From NCBI GenBank assembly GCA_947482115.1, contig CANKII010000001.1, forward strand, positions 577,840 to 641,839: a stretch of DNA of 64,000 bases, read 5' to 3'. Shown piece after piece: positions 1-61,575 of this stretch. Position 1 is the stretch's first letter. The number at the start of each line of letters is the position of its first letter. Below the pieces are notes generated by a model. It did not search any database and was not told where the DNA came from. It worked only from the letters and a program-made list of their open reading frames with translations. Origin of the DNA: Fibrobacterota bacterium (GTDB lineage: Bacteria; Fibrobacterota; Fibrobacteria; UBA11236). The position numbers and the translations under genes are program-made.

Positions 1-380
1 TGATAATCCTGAAGATTGGCCGATAGCGAAGCCGCGATGAACTCCAACGTGTCTTCCAGCTTATTCGGGGGCAACTTCAACGTACCGCCATCCTTGAGCA
101 AGCTGGAATAAAGTTGCAGTGTTGCCGTTTCTTCAGGCTTGTTCGGCAAATTCGGACGGGCGCACAACAAGGTGAGCTTCACGATGTCCAATGTGGAATC
201 GGGAACCAGATAAGCCACGGCTCCGTCTTTTAATTCCACGCGGTAGTCTTTGGGATAAGGCGGCTGATAAGACCATTGCGGAAAAACGATCTTCGAATAA
301 TGCGCAGGAATGGCGGGACCGGCGGGCTTTGCCGCCAAAGCTGCTGCAACGAAGGACAAGGCAAACAGAAGAGGTTTCAT
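1..380 (-). CDS. M16-family peptidase-like subunit (partial, N-terminal part; gene continues beyond the window start)
   Basis: Own translation of the minus strand from the ATG at 380..378: MKPLLFALSFVAAALAAKPAGPAIPAHYSKIVFPQW..., a signal-peptide-like N-terminus with no stop before the window edge. Its ATG overlaps the TGA of the upstream M16 gene (ATGA). M16 peptidases typically occur as adjacent pairs. The six-frame track lists only out-of-frame ORFs here. Confidence 0.5.
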   Translation of the reverse strand, partial: MKPLLFALSFVAAALAAKPAGPAIPAHYSKIVFPQWSYQPPYPKDYRVELKDGAVAYLVPDSTLDIVKLTLLCARPNLPNKPEETATLQLYSSLLKDGGTLKLPPNKLEDTLEFIAASLSANLQDY

Positions 381-1915
381 GGCTTACTCCCCTTGGGAAG
401 GAGAACCCCGACTGTTGCTGCATCACGCAGGAAGTATTTGGCGCAAACCTTCTGGACCTGTTCCGCACTGACTTTTTGCACGGCCTCCGGAAAGGTGTTG
501 ATGTTTTCCCAGCCGCCGCGCATTTCCCAATACGCCAGTTGCGTGGCAAGATTGTCGAGATTTTCCACGGCACGAATGCTGTTCGCAACCACTTGATTGC
601 GAGCGCGCTGCAATTCCCGTTCAGAGATGGGATGTTTGGCCATGTCGTCCAGCACTTCCCACACGGCCTTTTCCACCTTGTCTATTGCAGGAGCGCCATC
701 CAAATCCGCGCTAACCTGAAAATTTGAGGTGTATTTGGTAACATCATTTCCGGCCGAAGCGGAGATCGCCAGCTTCAACTCTTTCACGAGTTTCTGATAC
801 AGGCGACCGCTCTTTCCGGAGAGAACGCCTTCCACGACATCCAACGCATACAAGTCCTCGTTGGGAAACCCGGGCGTGTGAAAAAGAATGTCGAGCCGCG
901 GACGCGCATCGGCGCGATGCACGGTCAAGCGCTTTTCCCCGGCCTGTGGCGGCTCCTGCGTCACCACGGGAGGGAATTCCTCCCCGCGAGGAATTCCGTT
1001 GAAATAGCGTTTGATCTGGCTCATGGCCCAAGCCGTGTCCACATCTCCGGCCAGCACCAGAATGGCATTGTTGGGCTTGTAGTAACGGCGATAGTGATCC
1101 TCTGCCTCGCGCTGGGTCAGATATTTGATGTCGGAGGGATAACCAATGGTGGGAAAACGATAGGGATGCGCTTCGTAAAAAATGCCCATCAGACTTTCCC
1201 AATAGCGACCGGTAGGGCTGTCCTCGACACGCATGCGCCGTTCTTCCATCACCACATCGTGTTCCGGATAGAATTCGCGCAACACGGCATTTTTCATGCG
1301 GTCCGATTCCAACCACAGATAAAGTTCAACTTTATTTTTAGGAAGCGTCACAAAATAAGCCGTCATGAGGTCTGACGTAAACGCATTCAATTCCGTACCG
1401 CCGGCGCGTTCATAAGCGCCCCAGAGTTCTTCTTTGATCATGATTTTGCGCTGTTCGGCCAACAGAGAATCATAGCGCGACTTCCAACCGGCAGCCTTGA
1501 CTGAATCTTCGCGCACGGCTTCAAGACTATCCATCACCTTTTCAATTTTGGCTTCGAGAATCTGATCGCGTTTCGGATCGCTCGTTCCAATAGTCTTTGT
1601 GCCCTTGAACAGCAAATGCTCCAGCATGTGCGCAATGCCCGTGTGACCCGGCGCTTCATGCACCGAACCGGTCACATAAAACAAACGGCAGGACACGATG
1701 GGTGCGGTATGACTGGGATAAATGATGACCTTGAGGCCATTGTCCAATTGGGTATAAGCGGGATGAATGCCTTCGGCAGATGAAAGGCCGACAAAAATTG
1801 TCAGGGCGAGGCACCCTTCGACTACGCTCAGGGACCGTGCCTCGCCCTGACGCGAACCGGCGTTACGCCGGTTCAGGAACAATCGGCGCAGGTTCTGCAG
1901 GTGCATTGACCACAT
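377..1915 (-). CDS. M16 (pitrilysin/insulinase) family zinc peptidase, secreted
   Basis: 512-aa ORF with the inverted zinc-binding motif HxxEH (GIAHMLEHLLFKGT) and a hydrophobic signal-like segment after a long N-region. The exact start is uncertain: the ORF overlaps the upstream helicase by ~50 nt and contains hairpin element G. Confidence 0.8.
   Translation of the reverse strand: MWSMHLQNLRRLFLNRRNAGSRQGEARSLSVVEGCLALTIFVGLSSAEGIHPAYTQLDNGLKVIIYPSHTAPIVSCRLFYVTGSVHEAPGHTGIAHMLEHLLFKGTKTIGTSDPKRDQILEAKIEKVMDSLEAVREDSVKAAGWKSRYDSLLAEQRKIMIKEELWGAYERAGGTELNAFTSDLMTAYFVTLPKNKVELYLWLESDRMKNAVLREFYPEHDVVMEERRMRVEDSPTGRYWESLMGIFYEAHPYRFPTIGYPSDIKYLTQREAEDHYRRYYKPNNAILVLAGDVDTAWAMSQIKRYFNGIPRGEEFPPVVTQEPPQAGEKRLTVHRADARPRLDILFHTPGFPNEDLYALDVVEGVLSGKSGRLYQKLVKELKLAISASAGNDVTKYTSNFQVSADLDGAPAIDKVEKAVWEVLDDMAKHPISERELQRARNQVVANSIRAVENLDNLATQLAYWEMRGGWENINTFPEAVQKVSAEQVQKVCAKYFLRDAATVGVLLPKGSKP
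1800..1851. repeat. Hairpin element, type-2 core copy G: perfect 15-bp inverted repeat (gtcagggcgaggcac / gtgcctcgccctgac) around a 22-nt loop ccttcgactacgctcagggacc
   Basis: Read directly. The arms are exact reverse complements. The loop is the reverse complement of GGTCCCTGAGCGTAGTCGAAGG, which matches the type-2 core at 31449 and 61528 and resembles the type-1 core. It lies between the helicase stop (1863) and the peptidase hydrophobic core, in frame in the annotated peptidase N-terminus (RQGEARSLSVVEGCLALT). Confidence 0.7.
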
Positions 1916-3602
1916 AATCTTTCCACTCTTTCACTTCGTACGAATAACCCTGTTCGATCAGGAACAATTGCCGGTTCATCCCGAACTCCTGCTCTTTAGT
2001 GTCACGCGTGACGAGGGTATAAAAATGCGCCTTGGCTCCATTGATCTTGGGACGCAACACGCGACCTAGTCGCTGGGCTTCTTCCTGACGGCTGCCGAAA
2101 GCACCGGAAATTTGAATCAGCACATTGGCATCGGGAATGTCGACTGCAAAATTTCCCACCTTGGACACGATCAGGATTTGGATGATGCCTTCACGGAATT
2201 CCTGATAGATCCGTTCGCGTTCCCCGTTGGGCGTGGAACCGGTAATCATGGGTACGCCCAGAATTTCCTGAATCAGATCCAACTGGTTCAGATATTGACC
2301 GATGATCAGAATCCGATCACCGGGATGGCGGCGAATCAATTCCTTCACCACCGGAATCTTGTCCGGATTGGTGGAAGCCAGTACGGTTTTGTTTCGCAAG
2401 TCCGCAAGAGCATAGGTCACGCGTTCGCTGCCGCGCAGCGGAACCCGAATCTCCGTACAAACCGCAGTGGCGATCCAGCCCTGCCCTTCCAGAATTCTCC
2501 ATGGCACTTCAAATTTTTTGGGGCCGATGAGAGAGAAGACTTCCTTCTGCTTTCCATCCTCGCGAATCAAAGTCGCGGTCAAACCCAAACGGCGCGTAGC
2601 CTGCATGTCCGCGGAGATGCGGAACACCGGCGCAGGCAAAAGATGAACCTCGTCATAAATGATAAGGCCCCAGGCATTTTGTTCGAAGATTCCGAAATGC
2701 GGGAACTCTTCAGTCTTGCGTTTGCGATAGGTCAGGATTTGATAGGTCGCCACGGTCACCGGAGCAATGGTCTTCGAATCTCCGGTGTATTCTGAAATTT
2801 GATCCGGCCGAATGGTCGTCTTGTCGAGAATTTCTCGAATCCATTGACGCGCAGCCGTCACATTGGTAGTCAACACCAAGGTATGGCAACGACAACGCGC
2901 CATCACGGCCATTCCGATCACGGTTTTTCCCGCACCGCAAGGCAGAACAATGACACCCGAACCGCCCTTTTCCGATCCACCTGCATAAAAAACCCGTCCA
3001 GCGGCTTCCTGATAATCACGCAGCTTCATCGGACTGCCGGACAGCATGGTGTCGCGCATGTCGATTTCCAACGGAGTGCCGGCTACATAACCCGCAATAT
3101 CTTCAGCAGGAAACCCAATCTGTGTGAGGGCAACTTTGATGGGACCGCGTGAATGCGGACGAAGCAATGCCCTGCCGTTGACCGGAGGACGCTCCACATA
3201 TACGGCAATTTCCCGAACCTTGCAAACTTCTTCCAACAATTCCGCATTTTCGGATTCGAGAATCAAACCTTCCGAGTCACGGCTCAAACGCAACTGGCCA
3301 TAACGCTCCATGAAGGTTTCGATTTCATATACGACATTCGCGGGCAGCGCATAACGCGAATACTGGCGTAACACGTCCAGCACTTCCTTGGAACTGTGGC
3401 CGGCCGAAGCGGCGTTCCAGAGGGAGAGATGCGAAACAGCGTAAGTATGAACGTGTTCGGGACTTTTAATCAATTCGGTGAAAGGCGCAATGGCATCGCG
3501 AACCGCATCATGCTGCGGATGTGCCGCCTCGAGGAGGAGGGTCATGTCCCCCTGTACAATCAAGGGTTTTTCCACCGATGGATCCAAGTCGATTGATTGC
3601 AA
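1863..3602 (-). CDS. XPB/ERCC3 (Ssl2/Rad25)-like SF2 DNA helicase
   Basis: 579 aa. Walker A (LPCGAGKT), DEVH box (IIYDEVHLL), RED motif (LIREDGK) and a C-terminal helicase domain. Overall architecture resembles archaeal/bacterial XPB homologues. Confidence 0.75.
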   Translation of the reverse strand: MQSIDLDPSVEKPLIVQGDMTLLLEAAHPQHDAVRDAIAPFTELIKSPEHVHTYAVSHLSLWNAASAGHSSKEVLDVLRQYSRYALPANVVYEIETFMERYGQLRLSRDSEGLILESENAELLEEVCKVREIAVYVERPPVNGRALLRPHSRGPIKVALTQIGFPAEDIAGYVAGTPLEIDMRDTMLSGSPMKLRDYQEAAGRVFYAGGSEKGGSGVIVLPCGAGKTVIGMAVMARCRCHTLVLTTNVTAARQWIREILDKTTIRPDQISEYTGDSKTIAPVTVATYQILTYRKRKTEEFPHFGIFEQNAWGLIIYDEVHLLPAPVFRISADMQATRRLGLTATLIREDGKQKEVFSLIGPKKFEVPWRILEGQGWIATAVCTEIRVPLRGSERVTYALADLRNKTVLASTNPDKIPVVKELIRRHPGDRILIIGQYLNQLDLIQEILGVPMITGSTPNGERERIYQEFREGIIQILIVSKVGNFAVDIPDANVLIQISGAFGSRQEEAQRLGRVLRPKINGAKAHFYTLVTRDTKEQEFGMNRQLFLIEQGYSYEVKEWKDYVVNAPAEPAPIVPEPA

Positions 3603-3634: not shown

Positions 3635-4525
3635 CTAAGAGGGCGTTAAAACGCCATTGTCTTGCTTGAAAAAAGCCTGCTGTCGCGCCAAATGCGCCTT
3701 TTCGAATTCCTGTGCATCTTTCAATTCCTCTTCGGTCAAAACACCGGGTTCACCCGTCACTTCCAGAGCGGCTAGCATGGCTTTTGCCATCTCCAAAAAA
3801 CCTTCTTCGAATCCATTCTCAGGCAACGCGCGAATCTCACTCAACGACATGGCATGGCTTCGCAAGGAATCGAGATAAGCGGCACGTTGTTCTTCGTTGA
3901 GGCGGAGAATTTCCACCAGTCTTTCATGGTCCGGAGTCAAAGGAATGGAGCCATGTTGGAGAAAAGCTTCACGGGTCCTGCGCTGCGCCGAACCCACCAC
4001 CTTCCGTTCACCAAAAGCCAGTTCCGCCCGCGATGTGGATGCAAAACACGGCAGGGTGGATTGTTGGGTTATGGATTTTTTTGTTGAGGCGGACAGTCGG
4101 GGTAGCGCGGTCCCTGAGCCTGTCGAAGGGTGCGCCCCGACAACCGATAGACCAAATCCATTCAATGCCGCTGCCAACGCCCATCCGATCCGCTCATGCG
4201 AAACCGCCAGCGTCGAACACCATGCAGCCTCATCGCGTCGGGCAATCAGGGAATAAGTCAACTCTTCGGCATGCAATACCGCGCGCCCACCGGTGGGTCG
4301 CAACACAAAATCCCAACCGCGTTCTTGCAAGGCCGCCCTATCAAATTCTTCCGAAGGTTTCTGGAAATAGCCAAGGCTCACACACCAGGGTTCCCAACCG
4401 TAAAATCGCACCGTTGGCGGAGAGCGCTTCTCTTCCACCGCTTTCAGAACGGCTGCATCCACCGCCATGTTGAATGCTCCGCGATGTTTACCCGTGAATA
4501 AAATGCGCCACGGTTTTGCGTTCAT
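3635..4525 (-). CDS. Lipoate-protein ligase / octanoyltransferase family protein (BPL/LPL catalytic domain)
   Basis: 296 aa. The N-terminus (FTGKHRGAFNMAVDAAVLKAVEE...RFYGWEPWCVSLGYFQ) is typical of the LplA/LipM family. It carries an in-frame copy of hairpin element A encoding HPSTGSGTALPRL. Confidence 0.65.
   Translation of the reverse strand: MNAKPWRILFTGKHRGAFNMAVDAAVLKAVEEKRSPPTVRFYGWEPWCVSLGYFQKPSEEFDRAALQERGWDFVLRPTGGRAVLHAEELTYSLIARRDEAAWCSTLAVSHERIGWALAAALNGFGLSVVGAHPSTGSGTALPRLSASTKKSITQQSTLPCFASTSRAELAFGERKVVGSAQRRTREAFLQHGSIPLTPDHERLVEILRLNEEQRAAYLDSLRSHAMSLSEIRALPENGFEEGFLEMAKAMLAALEVTGEPGVLTEEELKDAQEFEKAHLARQQAFFKQDNGVLTPS
4096..4141. repeat. Hairpin element, type-1 core copy A (GGTCCCTGAGCCTGTCGAAGGG at 4109..4130) with imperfect flanking inverted repeats (gtcggggtagcgcg / tgcgccccgac)
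   Basis: Read directly. It lies inside the lipoate ligase CDS, in frame. Confidence 0.7.
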
Positions 4526-6404: not shown

Positions 6405-7312
6405 GCCAAATCCTCCGGGTTCTCCACCGGTGTAATCTTCAAATCGCGGGAAATACCGCGAGCCAGTCCCATCAATACTTTTCCTGCGCCCACTTCAAGT
6501 CCTTCGACCACGCCCAGAGACATGGCTTGTTGAATCGATTCCACCCAGCGCACAGGAGAAGTGAGCTGTCGCAGCAGTCCGGTTCTCAACGTTTCCGGAT
6601 CACTTTCCGCTGCTGCATCCACATTGGTAATGACGGGAACCTTGGCACGAAACAGAGTCACGGCACCCAATCCTTTTCGCAAACCTTCCACGGCGAATTC
6701 CATCAACGGAGAATGGAAAGCGCCGCTCACCGGTAAACGAACCACTTTCTTCGCACCCATTTCGGCGCACAATTTTTCTGCAGCTTCGACTCCAGCGCTT
6801 TCTCCCGAAATAACAATTTGCGAAGGACTGTTGAAATTTGCCGCCACGACAATCCCTGATGCGGACGCTGCTTTCAGGGCTTCTTCCAGTTTCTCACGTT
6901 CCAAACCGAGAATGGCGGACATGGCTCCGGGTCTTGCTTCACCGGCTTTGGACATCAGCTCGCCGCGCAAACGCACGAGTCTCAATCCGTCGGCAAAAGA
7001 GAAAACACCCGCAGCGCAAAGCGCAGAATATTCTCCGAGGGAATGTCCGGCCACATAATTGAACTCCACGCCGCGTTCGCGAACCCATTCCATCGCCATC
7101 ATGGACACGGTGAACAAAGCGGGCTGGGTGTTTTCCGTGGCGGTCAGTTTTTCTTCAGGTCCATTCCACAGAATGTCGGACAAATCAAAACCCAACACCG
7201 AGTTGGCTTCATCGAGAATTTTTTTAGCTCCGGCATGGGACTCGGAAAGTTTTTTTCCCATTCCGAGATATTGGGAACCTTGACCGGGGAAAAGGAGAAT
7301 GCGATTGCTCAT
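6401..7312 (-). CDS. fabD: Malonyl-CoA:ACP transacylase
   Basis: GHSLGEYSAL active-site motif; 303 aa. Its start overlaps the fabH end region. Confidence 0.9.
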   Translation of the reverse strand: MSNRILLFPGQGSQYLGMGKKLSESHAGAKKILDEANSVLGFDLSDILWNGPEEKLTATENTQPALFTVSMMAMEWVRERGVEFNYVAGHSLGEYSALCAAGVFSFADGLRLVRLRGELMSKAGEARPGAMSAILGLEREKLEEALKAASASGIVVAANFNSPSQIVISGESAGVEAAEKLCAEMGAKKVVRLPVSGAFHSPLMEFAVEGLRKGLGAVTLFRAKVPVITNVDAAAESDPETLRTGLLRQLTSPVRWVESIQQAMSLGVVEGLEVGAGKVLMGLARGISRDLKITPVENPEDLA

Positions 7313-13565: not shown

Positions 13566-13613
13566 GAATAGTGTACGAAATTAGACCCGGCCTGTAAGGG
13601 CGACCCGGCGGGT
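13566..13613. repeat. REP-like GC-rich palindrome (ccggcctgtaagggcgaccc-ggc-gggtcgcccttacaggccgg), copy 1
   Basis: Read directly: ~20-bp perfect arms with a 3-nt centre. It lies between the carB stop and the start of the TPR gene. It shares the core GGGCGACCCGGCGGGTCGCCC with the palindrome at 20497. Confidence 0.7.
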
Positions 13614-13618
13614 CGCCC

Positions 13619-16600
13619 TTACAGGCCGGCGTGAAATTCCTGCAAGGAGCGGACTTCGAGTTCCCCGCGTTTCAGGGCGCGAATGGCTTCCAATGCCGCA
13701 CGTGCCGCAGACATGGTTGTCGTATAAGGAATCTGGGCAATGAGCGCAGCTTTACGAATCAAACCATCGTCTTCAATCGCAGCTTGTCCCAAAGGCGTGT
13801 TGATCAGCAAAGCGCATTCCTTGCTCTGAATCAAATCCACGATATGCGGAGAACCTTCGGAAACCTTGTTCAAGGCGCGACAGGAAATGTCGTGTTCACG
13901 CAACACCTTCGCCGTGCCTGAAGTCGCAAGCAATTCAAAGCCGAGTTCCTGTAAACCCTGCGCAATCGGGACAATATTTTTCTTATCGTGATTATTCACG
14001 GAGAGAAATACCTTCCCGTGACTGGGAAGGCTGTTCCCCGCTGCGATTTGCGCCTTGGCAAAGGCTCGTGAAAAATTCGAATCGATGCCCATCACCTCGC
14101 CGGTGGATTTCATCTCGGGGCTTAGCAAGGTATCGACACCGTGGAATTTTGCAAACGGGAATACGCTTTCCTTCACCGTGACATAATTGCCGATGCGGGC
14201 CTCGGTGAATCCCAATTCCTGCAAAGTTTTCCCGAGCATGGCCTTGGTCGCCAACTTGGTCAAAGGAACACCGAGTGTTTTGCTGACGAAAGGAACCGTG
14301 CGGCTGCCGCGTGGATTCACTTCCAGCACATAAACCACATCGTCCTTAATGGCATACTGGACATTCATCAATCCAATCACCTTAAGCTCTTTGGCCATGG
14401 CGATGGTTTGGCGGCGCATTTCTTCCAGTACCGATTCGGTAATGTCCTGCGGCGGCATGATGCAGGCGGAATCTCCGGAGTGAATACCGGCTTCTTCAAT
14501 GTGCTGCATGATTCCCGCCACCACTACGGTTTTCCCGTCGGAGATGGCGTCCACATCCACTTCCATCGCTTGATCGAGGAACTTGTCCACAAGCACAGGC
14601 CGCTCAGAAGAAGCCTCGACTGCAGTGGCCATGTAATGACGCAACTCGTCTTCAGAATACACGATAGCCATCGCACGTCCGCCAAGCACAAAAGAAGGAC
14701 GCAGTAAGACGGGATAGGTCAACCGGGCTGCAACGGCAACCGCTTCTTCGGTGTTCACAGCCAAACCATTGGGCGGTTGCTTGAGACCCAAACGATTGAC
14801 CAGTTCGGAGAACAACTTGCGATCTTCCGCGATGTCGATGGAAGAAGGCGAGGTTCCCAAAATGGGCGCATGAGCGGCCTCCAAAGCTTTCGCCAACTTC
14901 AACGGCGTTTGTCCGCCGAATTGCAGAATGACACCGTAGGGTTTTTCCAACTCGATGATGTTGAGAATATCTTCACGAGTCAACGGTTCGAAATAAAGTT
15001 TGTCCGAGGTATCGTAATCCGTACTTACCGTTTCGGGATTGGAGTTCACCATGATGGATTCGCAATCCTCTTCCTGTAATGCAAAGGACGCCTGACAACA
15101 GGCATAGTCGAACTCGATACCCTGACCGATGCGGTTCGGGCCACCACCAACGATGATCACCTTCTTGCGATTCGTAGGAACCGATTCATTTTCTTCATCG
15201 TACGTCGAATAATGATAAGGCGTGAACGCCTTGAACTCGGCGGCGCAGGTGTCGACCGTCTTGTACACCGGCATGATATTCAGCGCCTTGCGCTGTTGAC
15301 GCACATCCTCTTCCTTGGAACCGGATAAGTACGCCAGTTGCACGTCGGAATAGCCCCATTGCTTCGCTTTCCGCAAAGTTTCTTTGGGTAAAGATTTGAG
15401 CGACTTGCCCTTCAAGTCCGACGCTTCGAAACGAACCAGATCGAGAATGTGATTCAGGAACCACGGATCCATGCGGCACATGCCCTGAACCTTTTCCAGA
15501 CTCCAGCCCAATTCAAAGGCGCGCTTCACGGAGAAAACACGGTTGATGCCGGGATGTTTGAAGTCGAGATTCTTTTCGATTTGATCGTCGGGAATTTCTT
15601 TTTTCCCGTCGGCGCCCAAACCGTAGCGGTCGATTTCCAGCGAGCGCATGGCTTTCTGCAGGGACTCTTTGAAAGTGCGACCGATGGCCATGGCCTCGCC
15701 CACCGACTTCATCTGCGTGCCCAGAACCGATTCCGCCTGCGCAAACTTCTCGAAGGTAAAACGCGGAACCTTGGTCACGACATAATCGATGGTCGGTTCA
15801 AAACAGGCAGGCGTGACGCGGGTGATGTCGTTCTTCAATTCATCCAGCGTATAGCCAACCGCAAGTTTGGCGGCGATTTTGGCAATGGGAAAACCAGTAG
15901 CCTTGGACGCCAATGCCGAACTGCGCGACACACGCGGATTCATCTCAATGATGATCAAGCGGCCGTCTTTGGGATTCACGGCGAATTGCACGTTGGAACC
16001 GCCGGTCTCCACTCCGATTTCACGGATGCAGGCGATGGAGGCATCGCGCATGCGCTGGTATTCCTTGTCCGTCAGCGTTTGCGCCGGAGCCACGGTGATG
16101 GAATCACCGGTGTGAATGCCCATGGCGTCCACGTTTTCAATGGAACAGATGATGACGACATTGTCCTTGCGGTCGCGCATCACTTCCATCTCGAATTCTT
16201 TCCATCCCACCATCGATTCCTCGACGAGGATTTCGGAAATCGGACTCAATGACAAACCACTGCGCGCAATGCGTTCAAATTCTTCTTCGGAGTATGCAAA
16301 GCCTCCGCCTGCTCCACCCATGGTGAAAGCCGGACGGATGACCAACGGCAAACCGATTTCCTTCATGGCGATGCGCGCTTCGTCCATGGTTCGGGCGACA
16401 AAAGACCGCGCTGAATCAATGCCAATTTTCGTCATCGCATCTTTGAACAACTTGCGCGACTCGGCTTTTTTGATGGCTTCCAGATTCGCGCCGATCATTT
16501 CGACGCCGTACTTTTCCAGAATGCCGCGTTCGGCCAGTTCGACGGCCGTGTTCAATCCCGTTTGTCCGCCCAAAGTGGGCAACAAGGCATCGGGTCTTTC

Positions 16601-17490: not shown

Positions 17491-18513
17491 TTATGGGGAA
17501 GTAAAAATGACCCCGTCATAACCCACCGCGACAAGTTTTCCGGTCCCTGAGCCTGTCGAAGGGCTTGTCCCCGCGACGGAATACAAGACGGATTTGGCAG
17601 CCAACGAATCGTTTGTCCAATGGACGCCATCATCTGAAACCAAAACCGTTCCTTCATAACCCACCGCAATAAATCGTCTGTTGTTCCACGTAATCGAGTT
17701 CAAGACGCCAAACGATCCCCGGGAAGCCCAGGTTACACCGTCCGGAGAAGCCAAAATATCTCCGTTGTTGCTTACAGCAACCAGTTGACTTCCACTCCAT
17801 GCGAGGGAGGAAAGGGCATTCGTGATGCCGGAACTTTGTTCCATCCACGTCACGCCATCTTGTGAAGTGAGAACCGTACCGTAGTAGCCCACTGCAATCA
17901 TCCGCGTTCCACTCCATGCCACGGAATACAAGTCTTCACCCCCTAAAACACCGTCACTTCCACCGTGAACCGGATCCTGCCGTCCCAATACCGGAAGCCG
18001 TTCGGTCCATGTAATTGCATCGGGAGATGTTAGTATGATCCCATCCCAGCCCACTGCCACAAAGAGTCCGGTCCCTGAGCCTGTCGAAGGGCCGGTCCAA
18101 ATAACCGAGTTTAAAATTGCCGATACTCCAGAATTCCGCTCTGTCCACACCACGCCATTCGGCGATGTTAAAACAATGCCGCCAGACCCCACAGCCACTA
18201 ACTGTCCGGGCCCTGAGCCTGTCGAAGGGCCTGTCCAAATCACAGAGTTCAAGGGATTTTCAGTTCCCGAAATTTGCTTTGTCCAGGTTGCTCCATCGGA
18301 CGACGTCAGAATAATTCCACTCGAACCGACGGCCACCCATTGATGATCCGCCCAAGTCACCGAATTCAATGCCTCGGTTGTTCCCGAGACCTGTTGTGTC
18401 CAAGACTTTCCCAAATTCACATTTTCATCATTGCCGGTCGAAGTCCTCATGCAATTCCAGAGAAACATCGGAATGATCAAAAAGGCTCCAATAAAAAGAT
18501 TCTTATTGCGCAT
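17491..18513 (-). CDS. Secreted BNR/Asp-box repeat protein (Ycf48-like beta-propeller)
   Basis: Signal peptide. Six or more S-x-D-G-x-T-W BNR motifs (TSSDGATWT, TSPNGVVWT, TSQDGVTWM, ASPDGVTWA, VSDDGVHWT). Three copies of PSTGSG(T/P)G are encoded by the hairpin-element core. Confidence 0.65.
   Translation of the reverse strand: MRNKNLFIGAFLIIPMFLWNCMRTSTGNDENVNLGKSWTQQVSGTTEALNSVTWADHQWVAVGSSGIILTSSDGATWTKQISGTENPLNSVIWTGPSTGSGPGQLVAVGSGGIVLTSPNGVVWTERNSGVSAILNSVIWTGPSTGSGTGLFVAVGWDGIILTSPDAITWTERLPVLGRQDPVHGGSDGVLGGEDLYSVAWSGTRMIAVGYYGTVLTSQDGVTWMEQSSGITNALSSLAWSGSQLVAVSNNGDILASPDGVTWASRGSFGVLNSITWNNRRFIAVGYEGTVLVSDDGVHWTNDSLAAKSVLYSVAGTSPSTGSGTGKLVAVGYDGVIFTSP
17542..17563. repeat. Hairpin element, type-1 core copy B (GGTCCCTGAGCCTGTCGAAGGG), flanked by gacaag/cttgtc
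   Basis: Read directly; inside the BNR gene, where it encodes PSTGSGT. Confidence 0.7.
18070..18091. repeat. Hairpin element, type-1 core copy C
   Basis: Read directly; inside the BNR gene (PSTGSGTG). Confidence 0.7.
18208..18229. repeat. Hairpin element, type-1 core copy D (GGGCCCTGAGCCTGTCGAAGGG)
   Basis: Read directly; inside the BNR gene, 141 bp from copy C (one protein-repeat period). Confidence 0.7.
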
Positions 18514-20494
18514 GCATCCACTCCGCAGCCTTTGAGCGCATCTCCCGAATCAATTCCGAGTCTTCCAGTAAATCCACGAACCGGAGCAGCCCAAATCCAC
18601 TTTGCCGTGTCCCGTCCAGACTTCCCGCACCGCGACGTTGAAGGTCCATCTCGGCAATGCGGAAACCATCTTCGGTGGACGCAAACTCGCGCAAACGTTC
18701 TTCGGTTTCCTCCGGCCACCCGTTAAGCGGTGCCAACAGAAAGCACCAGGCTTGCGATTGACCACGACCCGTGCGACCGCGCAACTGATGCAATTGCGCC
18801 AGCCCAAATCGATCCGCACTTTCGACCACCATCAGGTTCGCTCCCGGCACATCCACACCTACTTCAATTACAGTCGTAGCCACCAACGCATGGATTTCGC
18901 CCTTGCGGAATGATGACAAAATGCGTTCACGTTCCTGTGATGGGATTCGTCCATGCACGGCTTCAACGCGCCATTTGCCAACATTTCGTAACCGTTTGAC
19001 GGCGGAATCAATTGCTGCAATGCTTTCCGTTTCGTTGTCCATTTTATTCCCCCCCTCAAGAGGGGGGGATAAAGGGGGGGTGATTCTGGGAACAACCCAA
19101 TAAACCTGATTTCCATTTTGGGTTTCCCGAAAAAGAAACTCCAGCATTTCCTTTTCTTTTTCCGCAGGAACGCGTCGGGTTTTTACCGGCAAACGCCCAG
19201 CAGGTTTTTCCGCCAACGTCAACACATCCAAATCGCCATACAATGATTGTGCCAGCGTGCGCGGAATTGGTGTAGCGGAGAGATACAACACATGCGGTTC
19301 AATACCTTTGGCGGACAATGCTGCACGTTGTTCCACACCGAAGCGATGTTGTTCATCGATCAACACCAGCCGCAATTCTTTGAACACCACGCCGGATGAC
19401 AACAGCGAATGCGTGCCGACCACGAAGGGCAAGCTCCCATCCTTCAGTTTTTCAAGAATGCGAGTCCTCTCATCTGCGGGTGTCGAAGCCGACAACAATG
19501 CGGATTCAAAACCCGCTGCTTTCAATACTGCGGCGGTGGAACGGAAATGTTGCTCCACGAGAATTTCCGTGGGTGCCAGCAACACGGCCTGCGCTCCTGC
19601 AGCCATTACACGGATCGCTGCCAGCAAGGCCACGGCTGTTTTTCCCGAACCCACATCGCCGTGCAACAGGCCAAAGAATTGGCCCTGCGTTTCCAATGCG
19701 GTGTGAATGGATTGCAACACTTCTTCCTGACCTTTGGTCAGCGAAAAAGGCAAAGCGGAATGCGCAGCTTGTTCTGTTTCGGGATGCGCAGTGAAGACCC
19801 GACCCCGGTTTAATCGTTCCCGTCGTGCAACTTCGCGCTTCAAACTTAGCGGCCACAACTCACGAACCTTTATTTCACTAAAAGCCGTAGCGACCAAGTC
19901 CAACGACGTAGGCGCATGCAGAATTTTCAACGCTTCAATTTCGGACCGCAGCTGAAGGAAATTTTTCTCGTCCGGTGAAAGCGGATCGGAAAAAGAAAAC
20001 TGCTCCAGTGTTTCCAAAGCCAGTCGCCGCACCAACTTGTGATCGATGCGAGCTTCTTCCATTTCCTCGGTCATGGGATAAACGGGGAGCATGCCGCCGC
20101 GAGGTTCCTGATCCTCGTCAAGCTCCTCCCATTCGGGATGCGCGATTTGAAAGTCGTGGAAATAGGTCACAGGCCCGGCAACAGAGATTCGCTTTCCGGG
20201 TCGCAGGCGCTGTTTGAGAAAGTGGAGGCCGCGAAAGAAAACCAGTTCAATGCCACCCGTTTCATCGCGAACATGAACGACAAGCCTTGTTCCGATGCTG
20301 TCAGCTGATTCGATATGCGCGGGGAAAAAAGCATCCATCCCCTCTTTCAGGGAATCAATGGGAGTAATGCGCGTGCGGTCTACATACCGGCGCGGCAGAT
20401 AATAAACGAGATCGCGTAATGTGAGGAGGCCTGAGGCTTCGAAAGCCTTCAGGCGTTTGGGACCAACCCCGGTTAAGCGGGATAATTCGGACAT
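18503..20494 (-). CDS. recG: ATP-dependent DNA helicase RecG
   Basis: 663 aa. Wedge/OB N-terminal region, Walker A (GDVGSGKT), DEQH box (LIDEQHRFGV) and helicase C domain. It contains an in-frame G/C homopolymer insertion. Confidence 0.85.
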   Translation of the reverse strand: MSELSRLTGVGPKRLKAFEASGLLTLRDLVYYLPRRYVDRTRITPIDSLKEGMDAFFPAHIESADSIGTRLVVHVRDETGGIELVFFRGLHFLKQRLRPGKRISVAGPVTYFHDFQIAHPEWEELDEDQEPRGGMLPVYPMTEEMEEARIDHKLVRRLALETLEQFSFSDPLSPDEKNFLQLRSEIEALKILHAPTSLDLVATAFSEIKVRELWPLSLKREVARRERLNRGRVFTAHPETEQAAHSALPFSLTKGQEEVLQSIHTALETQGQFFGLLHGDVGSGKTAVALLAAIRVMAAGAQAVLLAPTEILVEQHFRSTAAVLKAAGFESALLSASTPADERTRILEKLKDGSLPFVVGTHSLLSSGVVFKELRLVLIDEQHRFGVEQRAALSAKGIEPHVLYLSATPIPRTLAQSLYGDLDVLTLAEKPAGRLPVKTRRVPAEKEKEMLEFLFRETQNGNQVYWVVPRITPPLSPPLEGGNKMDNETESIAAIDSAVKRLRNVGKWRVEAVHGRIPSQERERILSSFRKGEIHALVATTVIEVGVDVPGANLMVVESADRFGLAQLHQLRGRTGRGQSQAWCFLLAPLNGWPEETEERLREFASTEDGFRIAEMDLQRRGAGSLDGTRQSGFGLLRFVDLLEDSELIREMRSKAAEWMHAQ
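19049..19080. repeat. Homopolymer-rich hairpin-forming tract C7-TCAAGA-G7-ATAAA-G7 inside recG
   Basis: Read directly: ccccccctc (19049..19057) is the exact reverse complement of gaggggggg (19060..19068). Encodes PPLSPPLEGG in RecG. Confidence 0.8.
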
Positions 20495-20496
20495 GG

Positions 20497-20535
20497 CCGG
20501 TAGGGGCGACCCGGCGGGTCGCCCCTACCGGCCCC
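20497..20535. repeat. REP-like GC-rich palindrome (ggccggtaggggcgaccc-ggc-gggtcgcccctaccggcc), copy 2
   Basis: Read directly: 18-bp perfect arms. It sits between the rplS stop and the recG start. It has the same core as the 13566 copy, with two compensatory arm differences. Confidence 0.75.
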
Positions 20536-29433: not shown

Positions 29434-30552
<1,119 letters not shown>

Positions 30553-30588
30553 CCCGCCGCGCTTCGACAGGCTCAGCGACCGGCGTGT
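30553..30588. repeat. Hairpin element, type-1 core copy F, reverse orientation, diverged (cgcttcgacaggctcagcgacc), flanked by cgccgcgc / gcgaccggcg
   Basis: Read directly; immediately 3' of the leuB stop, in a convergent intergenic region. Confidence 0.6.
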
Positions 30589-31448: not shown

Positions 31449-31474
31449 GCTGGCTGAGCGTAGTCGAAGCCAGC
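31449..31474. repeat. Hairpin element, type-2 core copy H (gctggc-TGAGCGTAGTCGAA-gccagc)
   Basis: Read directly: perfect 6-bp arms. It lies immediately after the carbamoyltransferase stop codon. Confidence 0.65.
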
Positions 31475-31476
31475 AG

Positions 31477-33252
31477 TTAATCCTTCGCAACAGATTCCGA
31501 ATCCCACGTGTCCTTCATGTTTTCCCCGCGATGAATGATAAAATCCTCCATCACCAGACAATCGATTCCCGTTCCCATCATACAGCGATATGCCTGTTCC
31601 GGCGTGCAGACAATCGGTTCGCCGCGGATGTTGAACGAAGTGTTCACCAGCATCGGCACACCCGACAGTCCGCCGAAGGTCTTGATGAGATCATAATAAA
31701 GCGCATTGGTTTCCCGCCGTACCGTTTGCAGCCGTCCGCTGCCATCCACATGCGTCACCGCCGGAAGCTTCTCACGCCATTCCGGCCGCACCGGATAGAC
31801 CATCAGCATGAAATCCGTCGGCAATGGAACCGGATCATCGCATTCAAAGTATTTCGGCGCATCCTCGACACAAACAGACGGGGCGAAGGGACGGAAGATT
31901 TCACGATGCTTGACCTTGAGATTCAGAATGTCCCGCATGTTGGGATCACAGGGATTGGCCAGAATACTGCGTGCGCCCAGCGATCGTGGTCCCCATTCCA
32001 TTCGTCCCTGAAACCATCCCACCACTTTACCGGATTGAATCAGGTTTGCCGTTTCATCCAACAACTTTTCCCGCGATGGGAAGCGATGATGGACAATGTT
32101 TTGGCCGCGCAGAAAGGACTCGACTTCATCCGAAGAAAAGCTGGGGCCAAGATAAGGATGATGTAACGTGTGATTTGGAGAAGCAATTTGCCGGGGATTG
32201 TTGAATAAGGCATGATGTACATACAATGCCGTACCCATGCTGGAACCACCATCCCCTGCATTGGGCTGTATCCAGACATTTTGAAAATCCGTCTGCGAAA
32301 GAATCTTTCCATTACCAACGCTGTTCAATGCTACCCCACCGGATAATACCACGTTCGGACATTGGGTGGTTCGGTGCAATTGGCGCAGCATGGCAATCAC
32401 TGCTTCTTCGGTGATGATCTGGACTGCGGCGGCAATGTTCTCATGCCTCGAGGTCACCGGGTCCTCAGGCTTGCGAGGTGAACCACCAAGATGATCGCAC
32501 AACTTTTTCGAAGGCATCCGCTCGGCGAATTCATAATCGAAATAGCTCATGTCCAATTGAAAACTGCCGTCGGGTTTCAAATCGATTACTTGCTTCAACT
32601 TTGTGTAATACGGATTTGAAACAGGATTTTTGTCACCGTAAGCCGAAAGACCCATCACCTTGTACTCGGAATTATTGACGGAGAATCCCAGATACGCCGT
32701 GACCGTGGAATACAGCAAGCCAATGGAATGCGGAAAGCGGATTTCCTTGTGAAGTTCCAGCTGTGTTCCACGACCCATCCCCATTGCAGCCGTTGTCCAC
32801 TCCCCCACCCCGTCCACCGTCAACACAGCGGCTTCGTCAAAAGGACTCGGGTAAAAGGCTCCGGCCGCATGGGACAAATGATGTTCGAGAAAAAACACAT
32901 CGCCGCGATAACCGAGTTTCTTTTTGAACAACTTGCGGACACGCAATTTTTCCGTGAGCCACGAAGGCATGGCGCGTTGAAACACCATGAAGCTGCGGGG
33001 AAAATGCTGAACATGCTGCGTCAACAACCTCTCAAACTTGATCAGGGGTTTTTCATAAAAGGCGAGGGCATCCACTTCGCCAATATCAAGTCCGCCCTGC
33101 TTCAGGCAAAAAGCCACGGCATTTTCGGGAAAGGCGGGATCGTGTTTGCGCCGTGTGAAACGTTCCTCCTCGGCTGCGGCGACAATCCCACCATCCCGAA
33201 TCAAGGTCGCTGCGGCGTCGTGATAATGGCAACTGATGCCGAGAATATTCAT
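31477..33252 (-). CDS. Carbamoyltransferase (NodU/CmcH family)
   Basis: 591 aa. MNILGISCHYHDAAATLIRDGGIVAAAEEERFTRRKHD is a typical carbamoyltransferase N-terminus (ASKHA-fold, YrdC/Kae1-like). Confidence 0.85.
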   Translation of the reverse strand: MNILGISCHYHDAAATLIRDGGIVAAAEEERFTRRKHDPAFPENAVAFCLKQGGLDIGEVDALAFYEKPLIKFERLLTQHVQHFPRSFMVFQRAMPSWLTEKLRVRKLFKKKLGYRGDVFFLEHHLSHAAGAFYPSPFDEAAVLTVDGVGEWTTAAMGMGRGTQLELHKEIRFPHSIGLLYSTVTAYLGFSVNNSEYKVMGLSAYGDKNPVSNPYYTKLKQVIDLKPDGSFQLDMSYFDYEFAERMPSKKLCDHLGGSPRKPEDPVTSRHENIAAAVQIITEEAVIAMLRQLHRTTQCPNVVLSGGVALNSVGNGKILSQTDFQNVWIQPNAGDGGSSMGTALYVHHALFNNPRQIASPNHTLHHPYLGPSFSSDEVESFLRGQNIVHHRFPSREKLLDETANLIQSGKVVGWFQGRMEWGPRSLGARSILANPCDPNMRDILNLKVKHREIFRPFAPSVCVEDAPKYFECDDPVPLPTDFMLMVYPVRPEWREKLPAVTHVDGSGRLQTVRRETNALYYDLIKTFGGLSGVPMLVNTSFNIRGEPIVCTPEQAYRCMMGTGIDCLVMEDFIIHRGENMKDTWDSESVAKD

Positions 33253-33492: not shown

Positions 33493-33514
33493 CCCTTCGA
33501 CAGGCTCAGGGACC
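33493..33514. repeat. Hairpin element, type-1 core copy E, reverse orientation (cccttcgacaggctcagggacc)
   Basis: Read directly; in the 344-bp divergent intergenic region between the carbamoyltransferase and ilvE. It is followed by the 10-bp palindrome ctgaattcag. Confidence 0.7.
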
Positions 33515-34606: not shown

Positions 34607-34618
34607 CAAAAATGCAGC

Positions 34619-34654
34619 CCCGTAGGGGGCGCATTTTTGTTACGCCCCTTACGG
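34619..34654. terminator. Bidirectional terminator-like hairpin (cccgtagggggcg - catttttgtta - cgccccttacgg)
   Basis: Read directly; between the convergent ilvE and adhesin-gene stops. 12-bp arms with one mismatch and a T-rich loop. Confidence 0.45.
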
Positions 34655-39419: not shown

Positions 39420-39441
39420 GGGAATTTGCATCTCCCTAAAA

Positions 39442-39474
39442 AAGCCCGCTCCGACCAGAGCGGGCTTTTTTATT
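39442..39474 (+). terminator. Intrinsic terminator (aagcccgctc-cgacca-gagcgggctt + TTTTTTATT) 52 nt upstream of the cimA ATG; attenuator terminator
   Basis: Read directly: 10-bp GC-rich stem followed by a T-tract. The upstream segment gagcgg (39407..39412) can alternatively pair with ccgctc (39446..39451), which would form an antiterminator. Confidence 0.55.
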
Positions 39475-60027: not shown

Positions 60028-61491
60028 ATGTTCTCCTTGTGGGATTGGATTGTGGTCGCCGTTTATTTCGCTGCCATGGCTGGCATCGGCGCGTACTTCT
60101 CCAGAAAAAACCGCAACTTCAAAGATTTCATGTTTGGCGGCGGCAACATGCCGTGGTTTGCCGTGGGTATTTCCCTCATCGCCACCTCCGTCAGCGCCAA
60201 TACCTTCCTGGGCAATCCCGCCGACTCATATGCCAACGACATGCGGCTGTTGATGTTGAATTTCGGTTCCCTCGCCGCCATCGTCATAGTGGGAACTTTT
60301 TTCATTCCCCGCTATCGTGCCAGTGGAATCAAATCCGCCTACGAGCTTTTGGAAATCCGGTTTTCAAAACCCGTGCGAACACTCGCAGCCTCGCTTTATT
60401 CCTGTCATTTACTATTACGGATGGGAATGCTGATTTATGCTCCTTCGCTGGTGCTGATGAAAATCACCGGAGTTCCCTTCTGGGCGGCGGCTATCAGCAT
60501 GGGGCTCTTCGCCATGCTCTACACTTCGCTCGGTGGAATTAAAGCCGCGACCACCACAGACATCATCCAATTCTGCATCTTCTTCGGCGGCGGACTACTG
60601 TGCATTTATTTCTGTGCCAAGGGTGTGGGTTCTTTCGGAAAGACATGGGAACTGGCTCAAGCTGCAGGGAAAACACGCTGGTTGGATTTCACTTTTAATC
60701 CTGCAAGTGAACGGAATTTTTTCTCCGCGGCCATCGTGTACATCGTTTTCGAAGTCGCCATTCGGGGTTGCGATCAACAATTCGTACAGCGATACCTTTC
60801 CACCAAAAGCGTGCGCACGGCGAATTACTCCTCCATCACCTCTTCCCTATTGGGAATTTGTGTGGGCATCGTATTCTTTACGGTCGGCGCATTTCTCTAT
60901 GTGTATTTCCAAGTGGCGCATGTCGAAGCATTGCCGGTCACCAAAGTCAACGAGGTCCTCCCATATTTCATCATCCACGTTTTGCCACCGGGGGTGAAAG
61001 GCTTACTCGTTGCGGCTATCATGGCGGCGGACATGGGCGCTTTGAGCTCCGTATTAACCGCTTTGTCCAACACCACCGTTGTAGACTTGCTGCCACGCAC
61101 TCCCGGTGATGGCGAAATCAATCTCAGGAACGCCCGCAAGTGGGTTTTACTTTGGGGATTGCTGGGAATGGCCGCTTCGTTCGTTTGCGCCCTGGGAAAT
61201 ATCTCCATCCTATCCAAAGCATTGTTTTTCACATCACTGTTCAGTGGCCCATTACTCGGATTATTCTTGATGGCCTTCTTCCGGCCCAAACTTCATCCTA
61301 CCGCAGTCATTGTCGCAACCTTCGGCGGCATGGCCGTGCTGATGTTGTTTCTAAAAATCCCGGTATTGCCCGCAGGTTTGTGGAAACCTGTCTACGAAGT
61401 CTCATGGCCGTGGAATCCGTTGATTTCCATGACGGCGTCAATCACGATGGCACATGTGTTGAATTTGTTTTTTCGAAATCGACCCCGCTGA
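60028..61491 (+). CDS. Sodium:solute symporter (SSS family)
   Basis: 487 aa. 13-14 TM helices, an N-terminal SSF signature (GGGNMPWFAVGISLIATSVSANTFLG) and a GxxxG-rich core. Confidence 0.8.
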   Translation: MFSLWDWIVVAVYFAAMAGIGAYFSRKNRNFKDFMFGGGNMPWFAVGISLIATSVSANTFLGNPADSYANDMRLLMLNFGSLAAIVIVGTFFIPRYRASGIKSAYELLEIRFSKPVRTLAASLYSCHLLLRMGMLIYAPSLVLMKITGVPFWAAAISMGLFAMLYTSLGGIKAATTTDIIQFCIFFGGGLLCIYFCAKGVGSFGKTWELAQAAGKTRWLDFTFNPASERNFFSAAIVYIVFEVAIRGCDQQFVQRYLSTKSVRTANYSSITSSLLGICVGIVFFTVGAFLYVYFQVAHVEALPVTKVNEVLPYFIIHVLPPGVKGLLVAAIMAADMGALSSVLTALSNTTVVDLLPRTPGDGEINLRNARKWVLLWGLLGMAASFVCALGNISILSKALFFTSLFSGPLLGLFLMAFFRPKLHPTAVIVATFGGMAVLMLFLKIPVLPAGLWKPVYEVSWPWNPLISMTASITMAHVLNLFFRNRPR

Positions 61492-61515
61492 CTTCGACTC
61501 CGCTCAGTCAGCGGG
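61483..61515 (+). terminator. Hairpin overlapping the SSS-gene stop (ccccgctgact - tcgactccgctc - agtcagcggg)
   Basis: Read directly: 10-bp perfect arms in a convergent intergenic region. Followed by the T-containing ctgtttccc. Confidence 0.4.
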
Positions 61516-61527
61516 ACACTGTTTCCC

Positions 61528-61555
61528 GATCGTTGAGCGTAGTCGAAACGACCGG
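61528..61555. repeat. Hairpin element, type-2 core copy I (cgatcgt-TGAGCGTAGTCGAA-acgaccg)
   Basis: Read directly: arms complementary with one mismatch. It lies between the convergent SSS and DUF445 genes. Confidence 0.6.
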
Positions 61556-61575
61556 ATGCCCCTACCGTCGTTCGG

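Follow-up and report, generated by a model that had tools for sequence, protein, structure and literature searches.

A nested repeat hairpin at a helicase/peptidase junction of a Fibrobacterota genome, probably translated within the peptidase signal peptide

The hairpin at the junction of the helicase and peptidase genes

The window analyzed here is a 64,000-nucleotide stretch (64 kb) of contig CANKII010000001.1 from a Fibrobacterota bacterium, and the element under study is a hairpin at the junction of two of its genes. Both are located on the minus strand; one encodes an XPB/Rad25-like helicase and the other, downstream of it, an M16 (pitrilysin-family) peptidase. The first ATG of the peptidase open reading frame (ORF), at 1915, overlaps the helicase by 53 nt, in agreement with the ~50 nt given in an earlier reading of the same DNA (hereafter the original prediction). 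The perfect hairpin with a 15-bp stem that had been described at 1800..1851 was confirmed: its arms, GTCAGGGCGAGGCAC and GTGCCTCGCCCTGAC, are exact reverse complements (15 of 15 positions), they are separated by a loop of 22 nt, and the whole hairpin is 52 nt long. By our own arithmetic, perfect 15-bp inverted repeats with a spacing of ≤60 nt are expected by chance at ~0.004 per 64 kb. Folded as RNA in the mRNA sense, the hairpin gave -34.5 kcal/mol (z -5.3), none of 200 shuffled sequences folding equally well, and a z of -5.8 was obtained for the 111-nt region around it. The 52-nt hairpin and the surrounding 300-nt junction were identical in six independently assembled contigs (L001-L006), and no recent insertion polymorphism was found among these assemblies, which were 99.98-100% identical with 0 indels. 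The hairpin begins 11 nt past the helicase stop codon (12 nt had been claimed) and spans codons 22-39 of the peptidase (R22-T39). Its placement within the first ~40 codons was therefore correct, but it does not wholly precede the hydrophobic core of the signal peptide, as had also been proposed; the 3' arm encodes G-C-L-A-L-T, with which that core starts.

A 24-nt mini-hairpin, with a 4-bp stem, a loop of its own and a 3' ACC tail, forms the center of the structure. When this unit (CCCTTCGACTACGCTCAGGGACCG) is deleted, a perfect palindrome, GTCAGGGCGAGGCA|TGCCTCGCCCTGAC, remains. The hairpin is a small element at the dyad of a palindrome resembling the repetitive extragenic palindromic (REP) sequences; it is a nested repeat and probably not a purpose-built terminator. 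Its outer stem and flank (TGTCAGGGCGA) are alike at 10 of 11 positions to TGTAAGGGCGA of a core-less palindrome at 13587-13629, and the outer stem also resembles the palindrome at 20495-20533. These two palindromes (..GTAAGGGCGACCCG-g-CGGGTCGCCCTTAC.. and ..GTAGGGGCGACCCG-g-.., respectively) are REP-like of the GTAG type and are found at gene boundaries, the latter adjoining the ATG of ORF 18503-20494.

The helicase stop codon itself is spanned by a second palindrome, with 10-bp arms, in which the final helicase codons seem to be repeated in inverted form (GAACCGGCG|TAA|CGCCGGTTC) and whose right half is missing in a relative, L007. On the mRNA, the run AAUUUUUGU begins directly past the stem of the large hairpin; L007, whose helicase/peptidase junction is free of the element, has a similar T-run there (ACATTTTTAC). 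A search with Rfam covariance models gave 0 matches at the gathering threshold in the whole window, and only chance-level matches (E >1, searched to E 10) between 1700 and 2000.

The peptidase start and the same junction in relatives

Three canonical in-frame starts of the peptidase, ATG 1915, ATG 1906 and TTG 1882, are located upstream of the hairpin. No canonical in-frame start was found between 1880 and 1748, and the next one, TTG 1747 (L57), lies beyond the predicted cleavage motif SSA|EG. The sole hydrophobic stretch in the first 60 residues is C35-L44 (CLALTIFVGL, Kyte-Doolittle 2.6), the first residues of which are encoded by the 3' arm of the hairpin. It is followed by S-S-A|E-G-I-H, to which the junction A-x-A|(E/G)-I-(K/H) corresponds in the alignment with homologues. 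Residues 1-34 contain six Arg vs two Glu. The segment thus shows the traits of a Sec-type signal peptide as judged by sequence, namely a positive n-region, an h-region in the range of 7-15 residues and small residues at -3/-1. Because the only hydrophobic stretch begins in the 3' arm and is followed by the cleavage motif, any start that yields a signal peptide would be located upstream of the hairpin, which would then be read through. The hairpin is most likely translated as part of an unusually long signal peptide of the peptidase, with initiation predicted at 1915 or 1906 and the peptidase predicted to be exported.

The start ATGTGGTCA(ATG), which overlaps the helicase end and reads MWS(M), recurs in P0003, P0009, P0018 and L008. 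The sequence TATGTGGTCAA is invariant at wobble positions in four lineages, whereas the neighboring upstream helicase codons vary, and GGAGG is found 6-7 nt before the ATG in L008 and L208. In L208, which has no hairpin, the helicase ends with ...DYVVNG-TAG and the peptidase starts with ATGTGGTCAATGGCTAGG..., leading to MWSMARPWFFLLFCFTAVHA|EIK; the overlap is 17 nt, and the ATGTGGTCA start, the only one possible there, directly heads a normal signal peptide of 20 residues. In L209, the same MWSM start is followed by two hairpins, including a REP-like palindrome without the core (GGGCGGACGG/CCGTCCGCCC), and then by the h-region, all in frame, with no canonical start past the palindrome. In L008, whose peptidase is 82% identical, the frame is open from ATGTGGTCA through the hairpin, and an internal ATG exists too. 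The core of L008 (CCTTCGACTCCGCTCAGGGACC) is oriented opposite to the genes and is placed within a different REP-like stem (ATAGGGGCGATTCG/CGAATTGCCTCTAT), in which two non-Watson-Crick positions are G-T on the coding strand. The P0003 protein reads MWSMVDVMHVGARCRRGASRCAPT..., which is a translated palindrome. No hairpin was found at the junction of the sister lineage L007 (peptidase 88% identical) or of L223; the distant relatives L222 and L223 are arranged differently. Metagenome contigs carrying the peptidase were also scanned and yielded only relatives of ≤58% identity, which are uninformative for the junction.

The variable occupancy of the junction fits repeated insertion or turnover at what may be a permissive site, and not a conserved regulatory hairpin. 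The original prediction had offered translation of the hairpin in an unusually long n-region as one of two options, and this option is supported by the upstream-only starts, by the start common to relatives and by other copies of the element that are in frame. What the orthologues have in common is the start codon; the same N-terminal extension, which the original prediction had coupled to it, is not shared, each lineage carrying a different insert or none.

The end of the helicase also varies. Its C-terminus (1866-1904 in the window) is ~13 residues longer (APAEPAPIVPEPA) in the window and in L007 than in L008, L208 and L209, where ..DYVVNG is followed by the stop; since these lengths differ among relatives, the stop codon has moved within the clade. 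In another relative, L210 (1150-1270), the two arms of a long inverted repeat of another type (GTACCCAGTACCCAGTACCCGGT ... ACCGGGTACTGGGTACTGGGTAC) enclose the peptidase start, and the 3' arm is translated (AWYRVLGTGY) just ahead of the h-region.

Copies of the element in the window and across phyla

About ten copies of the core, with two types of loop, were found in the 64 kb, and four of them are in frame inside real ORFs (Table 1). The type-2 loop that the original prediction had placed in the junction hairpin is real: its core TTCGACTNCGCTCAG (TTCGACT[A/C]CGCTCAG), located at 1817, recurs at 31454, 61493 and 61533, with 5 matches vs 0.42 expected. The second loop type (type-1), TTCGACAGGCTCAG, was found six times, with the core CCCTTCGACAGGCTCAGGGACC. 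Five of the six frames of the core are free of stops, and those copies of the window that are intergenic are located at the 3' ends of genes. The core at 4114 is translated as HPSTGSGTA (..GAHPSTGSGTALPRL..) in a loop of the LplA-like protein, and in the L008 orthologue this loop is 9 residues shorter and unrelated. In ORF 17491-18513, the cores occupy three of ~7 internal repeats, each of which is 7 codons longer than the uninterrupted repeats; the product appears to be a secreted, beta-propeller-like repeat protein, with only sub-threshold Pfam matches. The first core of the inverted pair at 61484-61560 sits in a hairpin with a 10-bp stem that overlaps the TGA stop of ORF 60028-61491. The two cores of this pair can also pair with each other (-33 to -38 kcal/mol), in a geometry resembling that of a REPIN (REP doublet forming hairpins). 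Classical bidirectional terminator-like hairpins, which show the ordinary terminator form of this genome, were observed at 39437-39472 (TAAAAAAGCCCGCTC-cgacca-GAGCGGGCTTTTTTA) and 34604-34642 (TAACAAAAATGC-...-GCATTTTTGTTA).

Table 1. Features of the window around the junction hairpin and its related repeats
Position	Strand	Feature	Details
377..1915	-	M16 (pitrilysin-family) peptidase ORF	PF00675, PF05193; candidate starts ATG 1915-1913, ATG 1906-1904, TTG 1882-1880
1775..1915	-	Predicted 47-codon signal peptide	n-region codons 1-34; h-region CLALTIFVGL codons 35-44 (1784-1813); c-region S-S-A, predicted cleavage before E48
1791..1799	-	T-run AAUUUUUGU on the mRNA	Begins directly past the stem
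1800..1814	.	Outer hairpin arm GTCAGGGCGAGGCAC	Left half of the REP-like palindrome
1814..1837	+	24-nt mini-hairpin core CCCT-TCGACTACGCTC-AGGG-ACC-G	Stem 1814-1817 with 1830-1833, loop 1818-1829, ACC tail 1834-1836
1837..1851	.	Outer hairpin arm GTGCCTCGCCCTGAC	Minus strand encodes G-C-L-A-L-T, start of the predicted signal-peptide hydrophobic core
1854..1874	.	10-bp palindrome GAACCGGCGT-t-ACGCCGGTTC	Spans the helicase stop codon; -14.9 kcal/mol
1863..3602	-	XPB/Rad25-like helicase ORF	Stop TAA 1865-1863; Pfam ERCC3_RAD25_C, ResIII, Helicase_C
4114..4127	-	Type-1 core CCCTTCGACAGGCTCAGGGACC	In frame in LplA-like lipoate-protein ligase ORF 3635-4525; arms GTCGGGGCGC/GCGC..CCCCGAC (4100-4145)
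13587..13629	.	REP-like perfect palindrome CCGGCCTGTAAGGGCGACCCG-g-CGGGTCGCCCTTACAGGCCGG	21-bp arms, no core
17547-17560, 18075-18088, 18213-18226	-	Three type-1 cores	In frame as GPSTGSG(T/P)G in ORF 17491-18513
20495..20533	.	REP-like perfect palindrome GGCCGGTAGGGGCGACCCG-g-CGGGTCGCCCCTACCGGCC	19-bp arms, no core
30563..30576	+	Type-1 loop with closing stem CGCT/AGCG and ACC tail	11 nt past the stop of ORF 29461-30552
31454..31468	-	Type-2 core between 7-bp arms GCTGGCT/AGCCAGC	~3 nt past the stop of ORF 31477-33252
33496..33509	+	Type-1 core	Intergenic, upstream of ORF 33596-34606
61484..61560	.	Inverted pair of type-2 cores	61493-61507 (+) and 61533-61547 (-), 25 nt apart, between convergent genes

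Genome contigs were scanned for the exact 22-mer CCTTCGACTNCGCTCAGGGACC (21 specified bases; loci L009-L127), the counts being lower bounds. At least 119 stretches with 152 matches were obtained, compared with ~0.3 expected by chance (596 Gb, both strands). Among the matches listed were Bacteroidota, including isolates of Cognataquiflexum, Algoriphagus, Arenibacter and Flavobacterium, as well as Cyanobacteria (Nodosilinea, Prochloron), Treponema and other Spirochaetota, Desulfobacterota (Geobacterales, Desulfobulbaceae), Fibrobacterota, Patescibacteria, Cloacimonadota (Cloacimonadales), Gammaproteobacteria and others. In viral contigs only 11 matches were found in 2.9 million, which gives no sign of phage carriage. 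Some copies stand alone, some form pairs (head-to-head or tail-to-tail), and others are repeated directly in tandem (periods 23-28 nt). Such arrays, whose periods are 23, 25, 27 and 28 nt and whose spacers vary between genomes, were observed in L025 (5801-5991), L039 (356-452), L047 (1038-1115), L055 (4262-4306) and L073 (5758-5825). In Bacteroidales, the core is found in both ~75-nt inverted arms of a ~200-bp palindromic element resembling miniature inverted-repeat transposable elements (MITEs), with conserved flanks (..gaaaactcgacaac-core-ggcgacttcattcaa..; L041 at 6791-6986, L058, L076, L108, L120 and L122).

In variant copies of the same loci, the 12-nt loop TCGACTNCGCTC is kept and the 4-bp closing stem changes in a complementary fashion (CCCT/AGGG, TGGT/ACCA, CGCT/AGCG, GGCT/AGCC, CATT/AATG and CCCC/GGGG). 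Across 66 distinct sequences, 93.9% of the stem cells were paired vs 63.7% in shuffles, and 74 double-change cells were counted vs 20.5 expected, a value that none of 500 shuffles reached; when the stem positions were slid as controls, pairing fell to 21-58%. The 3' ACC tail is conserved as well (of the 66 sequences, 57 have the A, 51 the first C and 63 the second C). Flanking arms of ≥6 bp were found around only 6-10% of the cross-phylum cores vs 1.4% of controls; the view that long locus-specific arms enclose the loop in every copy was rejected on this ground, and long outer stems are a local feature.

About three quarters of the copies lie outside long ORFs according to a crude ORF call. 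In co-directional intergenic regions, the core was found 25 times in sense and 27 times in antisense, i.e., with no orientation bias relative to transcription, and copies in convergent intergenic regions outnumber those in divergent ones (22 vs 7). Stem mismatches across the family are G-T in 11 and A-C in 5 cases, which is not decisive between the RNA and the DNA level. This distribution fits a DNA-level repeat purged from promoter regions, and a strand-specific RNA function is unsupported by it. No convincing direct repeat was found flanking the core in a test for target-site duplications. Full-text literature searches with the core in both orientations, three variants, the type-1 variants and the encoded peptides returned nothing relevant. 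By inspection, a hammerhead core was rejected (CUGAGCG does not fit CUGANGA), as were a tRNA T-arm (no G53-C61 pair flanks TTCGACT) and a lipoprotein signal (VEGC is not a lipobox, and no h-region lies ahead of it).

Origin and possible roles of the hairpin

Based on the structure of the hairpin and its membership in the repeat family, its presence or absence at orthologous sites, the common start codon, the lack of a canonical start downstream and the in-frame copies elsewhere in the window, it is probably repeat DNA of two nested kinds, selfish or neutral, that is translated in frame within the peptidase signal peptide. The outer kind would be a REP-like palindrome (TGTCAGGGCGAGGCA|TGCCTCGCCCTGACA), carrying at its dyad the 24-nt tagged mini-hairpin with the loop TCGACTNCGCTC, the covarying 4-bp stem and the 3' ACC tail. 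The peptidase of this clade would initiate at ATGTGGTCA(ATG), inside the last codons of the helicase, so that an insertion 3' of the helicase stop would fall into the region coding for the signal peptide. Repeat hairpins homing just 3' of that stop would land in the n-region, which presumably tolerates insertions, and only in-frame, stop-free inserts would survive; the insert of the window keeps the frame and brings no stop. Ribosomes from 1915, 1906 or 1882 would unwind and translate the hairpin (R22-T39), and its 3' arm may have been co-opted as the first residues of the hydrophobic core. By analogy with REPs, the hairpin may as a side effect stall ribosomes at the helicase stop, protect the 3' end of the helicase mRNA or slow down translation of the peptidase.

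Several observations weigh against translation of the hairpin in a signal peptide and against its origin from a mobile repeat. A signal peptide of 47 residues exceeds the typical length (~18-30 residues), and the 56 residues ahead of the peptidase domain compare with a median of 34 in 108 homologues (87th percentile). Two Glu residues, E25 and E33, stand in the n-region, the Shine-Dalgarno-like motif ahead of 1915 is weak in the window (GGAAAG), and a hairpin of -34 kcal/mol within the ORF should slow ribosomes. A near-cognate codon may serve as the peptidase start. In L007, the start ATG has been lost (EYIVN) and a new in-frame ATG is found downstream, after the helicase stop, so that start sites do shift in the clade; moreover, the in-frame evidence from relatives was partly ascertained via gene calls that extend through the inserts. 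As for mobility, no transposase turned up within the 64-kb window, in which no systematic protein scan was made, and neither target-site duplication nor recent insertion polymorphism was found. Because none of the three was found, mobility is deduced only from differences between species.

The second option of the original prediction was a non-canonical peptidase start, with the hairpin as an intercistronic terminator or processing site; in the form weighed here, the hairpin would be an intrinsic terminator or attenuator, or an RNase processing site, and the peptidase would start past it. The hairpin does share with Rho-independent terminators a GC-rich stem (15 bp) followed by a U-run (U5, within AAUUUUUGU) shortly past a stop codon, further family members come right after stop codons (31454, 61493 and 30563), and some cross-phylum copies form the loop of terminator-like hairpins (AAAAAAGCCC...GGGCTTTTTT in L012; GGGGCC...GGCCCC and then TTTT in L077). 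However, its 22-nt loop is outside the usual geometry of a short loop (~3-8 nt), and a terminator scan flagged only a 6-bp sub-stem, with no excess of terminator-like matches in the region over shuffles (9 vs 7.1). A T-run is already present at the element-free junction of L007, L008 carries the core inverted at this junction, and the family, which has no strand bias relative to transcription, places its core in both orientations and also inside ORFs. The only in-frame candidates past the hairpin and ahead of the cleavage motif are CTG 1804 and ATT 1798; the leader would have ≤10 residues, too few for a signal peptide, whereas leaders resembling signal peptides are present at the homologue N-termini that were inspected. 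The start ATGTGGTCA is common to relatives, and with all canonical starts of the downstream ORF located upstream of it, the hairpin would lie inside translated sequence, not outside as in a terminator. This option thus received little support and is considered improbable. An assembly or sequencing artefact, as a chimeric junction or a fold-back, is extremely improbable: fold-back can produce perfect palindromes and the source is a metagenome-assembled genome, but six contigs obtained from different samples and with different assemblers agree exactly at the junction, the reading frame is unbroken, and the same core is present in isolate genomes of several genera.

It is doubtful, although less so than a terminator, that the translated hairpin is also kept for a cis-acting RNA role of the type usual for REPs near stop codons. 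It might stall ribosomes terminating on the helicase and thereby lower helicase output, protect the 3' end of the helicase mRNA or tune translational coupling into the peptidase. The base of the hairpin is only 11 nt from the stop, the stop itself is covered by a second hairpin, and a strong hairpin is found at the junction in at least three lineages (the window, L008 and L209), probably also in P0003 as judged from its protein; the two G-T positions of the L008 stem would be G-U pairs in mRNA. Liang, Rudd and Deutscher are said to have reported in 2015 that REPs within ~15 nt of a stop codon down-regulate the upstream gene, and this was counted in favor of such a role. In contrast, the absence of any hairpin from the junctions of L007, L208 and L223 indicates that it is dispensable, the hairpins of different lineages are unrelated in sequence and orientation, and neither the mismatches (G-T vs A-C) nor the strand orientation across the family gives a clear RNA-level signal.

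Among known systems, the translated nested repeat proposed here is closest in form to tagged REPs, the GTAG/CGTC stem-loop repeats of 20-40 bp with covarying stems and an unpaired terminal tag (Di Nocera et al. 2013, PMC3733652). These are mostly extragenic, downstream of genes or between convergent genes, and are sometimes intragenic and translated; their nesting inside other palindromes has also been described (PMC3733652). With tagged REPs and REPINs (PMC3733652; Bertels and Rainey 2011, PMC3116915), the element shares dispersed stem-loops, covarying stems, an unpaired tag, a preference for gene 3' ends, the occurrence as singles, inverted pairs and tandem clusters, intragenic translated copies and nesting in palindromes. 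It is a short stem-loop that is repeated, with ~10 cores and two REP-like palindromes per 64 kb, and it is mainly extragenic, at gene 3' ends and in convergent rather than divergent regions. However, the unpaired flank of the core reads ACC(G), or CGGT on the other strand, and not the defining GTAG or CGTC, and the outer palindromes read GTCA, GTAA or GTAG, so that only the outer element is GTAG-like, and not cleanly so. REP families are largely lineage-specific, whereas the element has a stem of only 4 bp and a 12-nt loop that is identical across phyla. No matching strings were found in the supplements of PMC3733652.

The in-frame copies recall another class of repeats. As in Rickettsia palindromic elements (RPEs), a palindromic insert is found in frame in protein genes and is absent from orthologous sites (the LplA-like gene, the repeats of ORF 17491-18513, and the junction in L007 and L208), and it is tolerated in loops or termini, adding residues to the product. 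RPEs, palindromic repeats in frame in protein genes, were reportedly described by Ogata and colleagues in 2000, with RPE-1 said to be 100-150 bp long and confined to Rickettsia. RPE-4 and RPE-6 have been equated with CGTC REPs (PMC3733652). The present unit is shorter, 24 nt by itself and 52 nt when the 28-nt outer palindrome is counted, its host belongs to the Fibrobacterota, and the insert would supply part of a signal peptide. The small dispersed repeats (SDRs) that Elhai is said to have described in 2008 within heterocystous cyanobacteria are reportedly 21-27 nt long. By description only, they are alike in being mobile-looking, non-coding units far smaller than MITEs and nested in other repeats, but the core spans many phyla. 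DNA uptake sequences (USS/DUS) are likewise dense short words, which genes accommodate in tolerated frames and which also form terminator-like hairpins as inverted pairs, but they are lineage-specific and show no structural covariation, whereas the element spans phyla with a covarying stem, and nothing points to a role in uptake.

For the family as a whole, we tentatively suggest that N4-TCGACTNCGCTC-N4'-ACC may be an undescribed pan-bacterial mobile hairpin of ~24 nt, whose loop would be kept identical across at least 10 phyla through a conserved enzyme binding single-stranded DNA or RNA. It would prefer palindrome dyads and gene 3' ends, and would be sufficiently free of stops to be taken up into proteins, here into a signal peptide. 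By analogy with REPs, mobility may take place at the DNA level via a trans-acting, hairpin-recognizing enzyme of the HUH/RAYT type.

In annotation, start-codon calls become unreliable where hairpin repeats occupy gene junctions; the comparative evidence here favors the long overlapping start, and the repeat should therefore be annotated as translated, without trimming of the ORF. The junction provides a concrete case in which a repeat element would give residues to the hydrophobic core of a signal peptide, and the flexible PSTGSGT loops that the same element adds to two other proteins of the window show that RPE-like insertion is also found outside Rickettsia. The fact that a non-coding sequence of 22 nt is unchanged from Bacteroidota to Cyanobacteria, has a stem that covaries and matches neither an Rfam family nor the literature searched points to an unrecognized trans-acting partner or mobility mechanism. 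The junction hairpin is a well-explained repeat, the main consequence of which concerns annotation and signal-peptide evolution; the family to which it belongs is more surprising.

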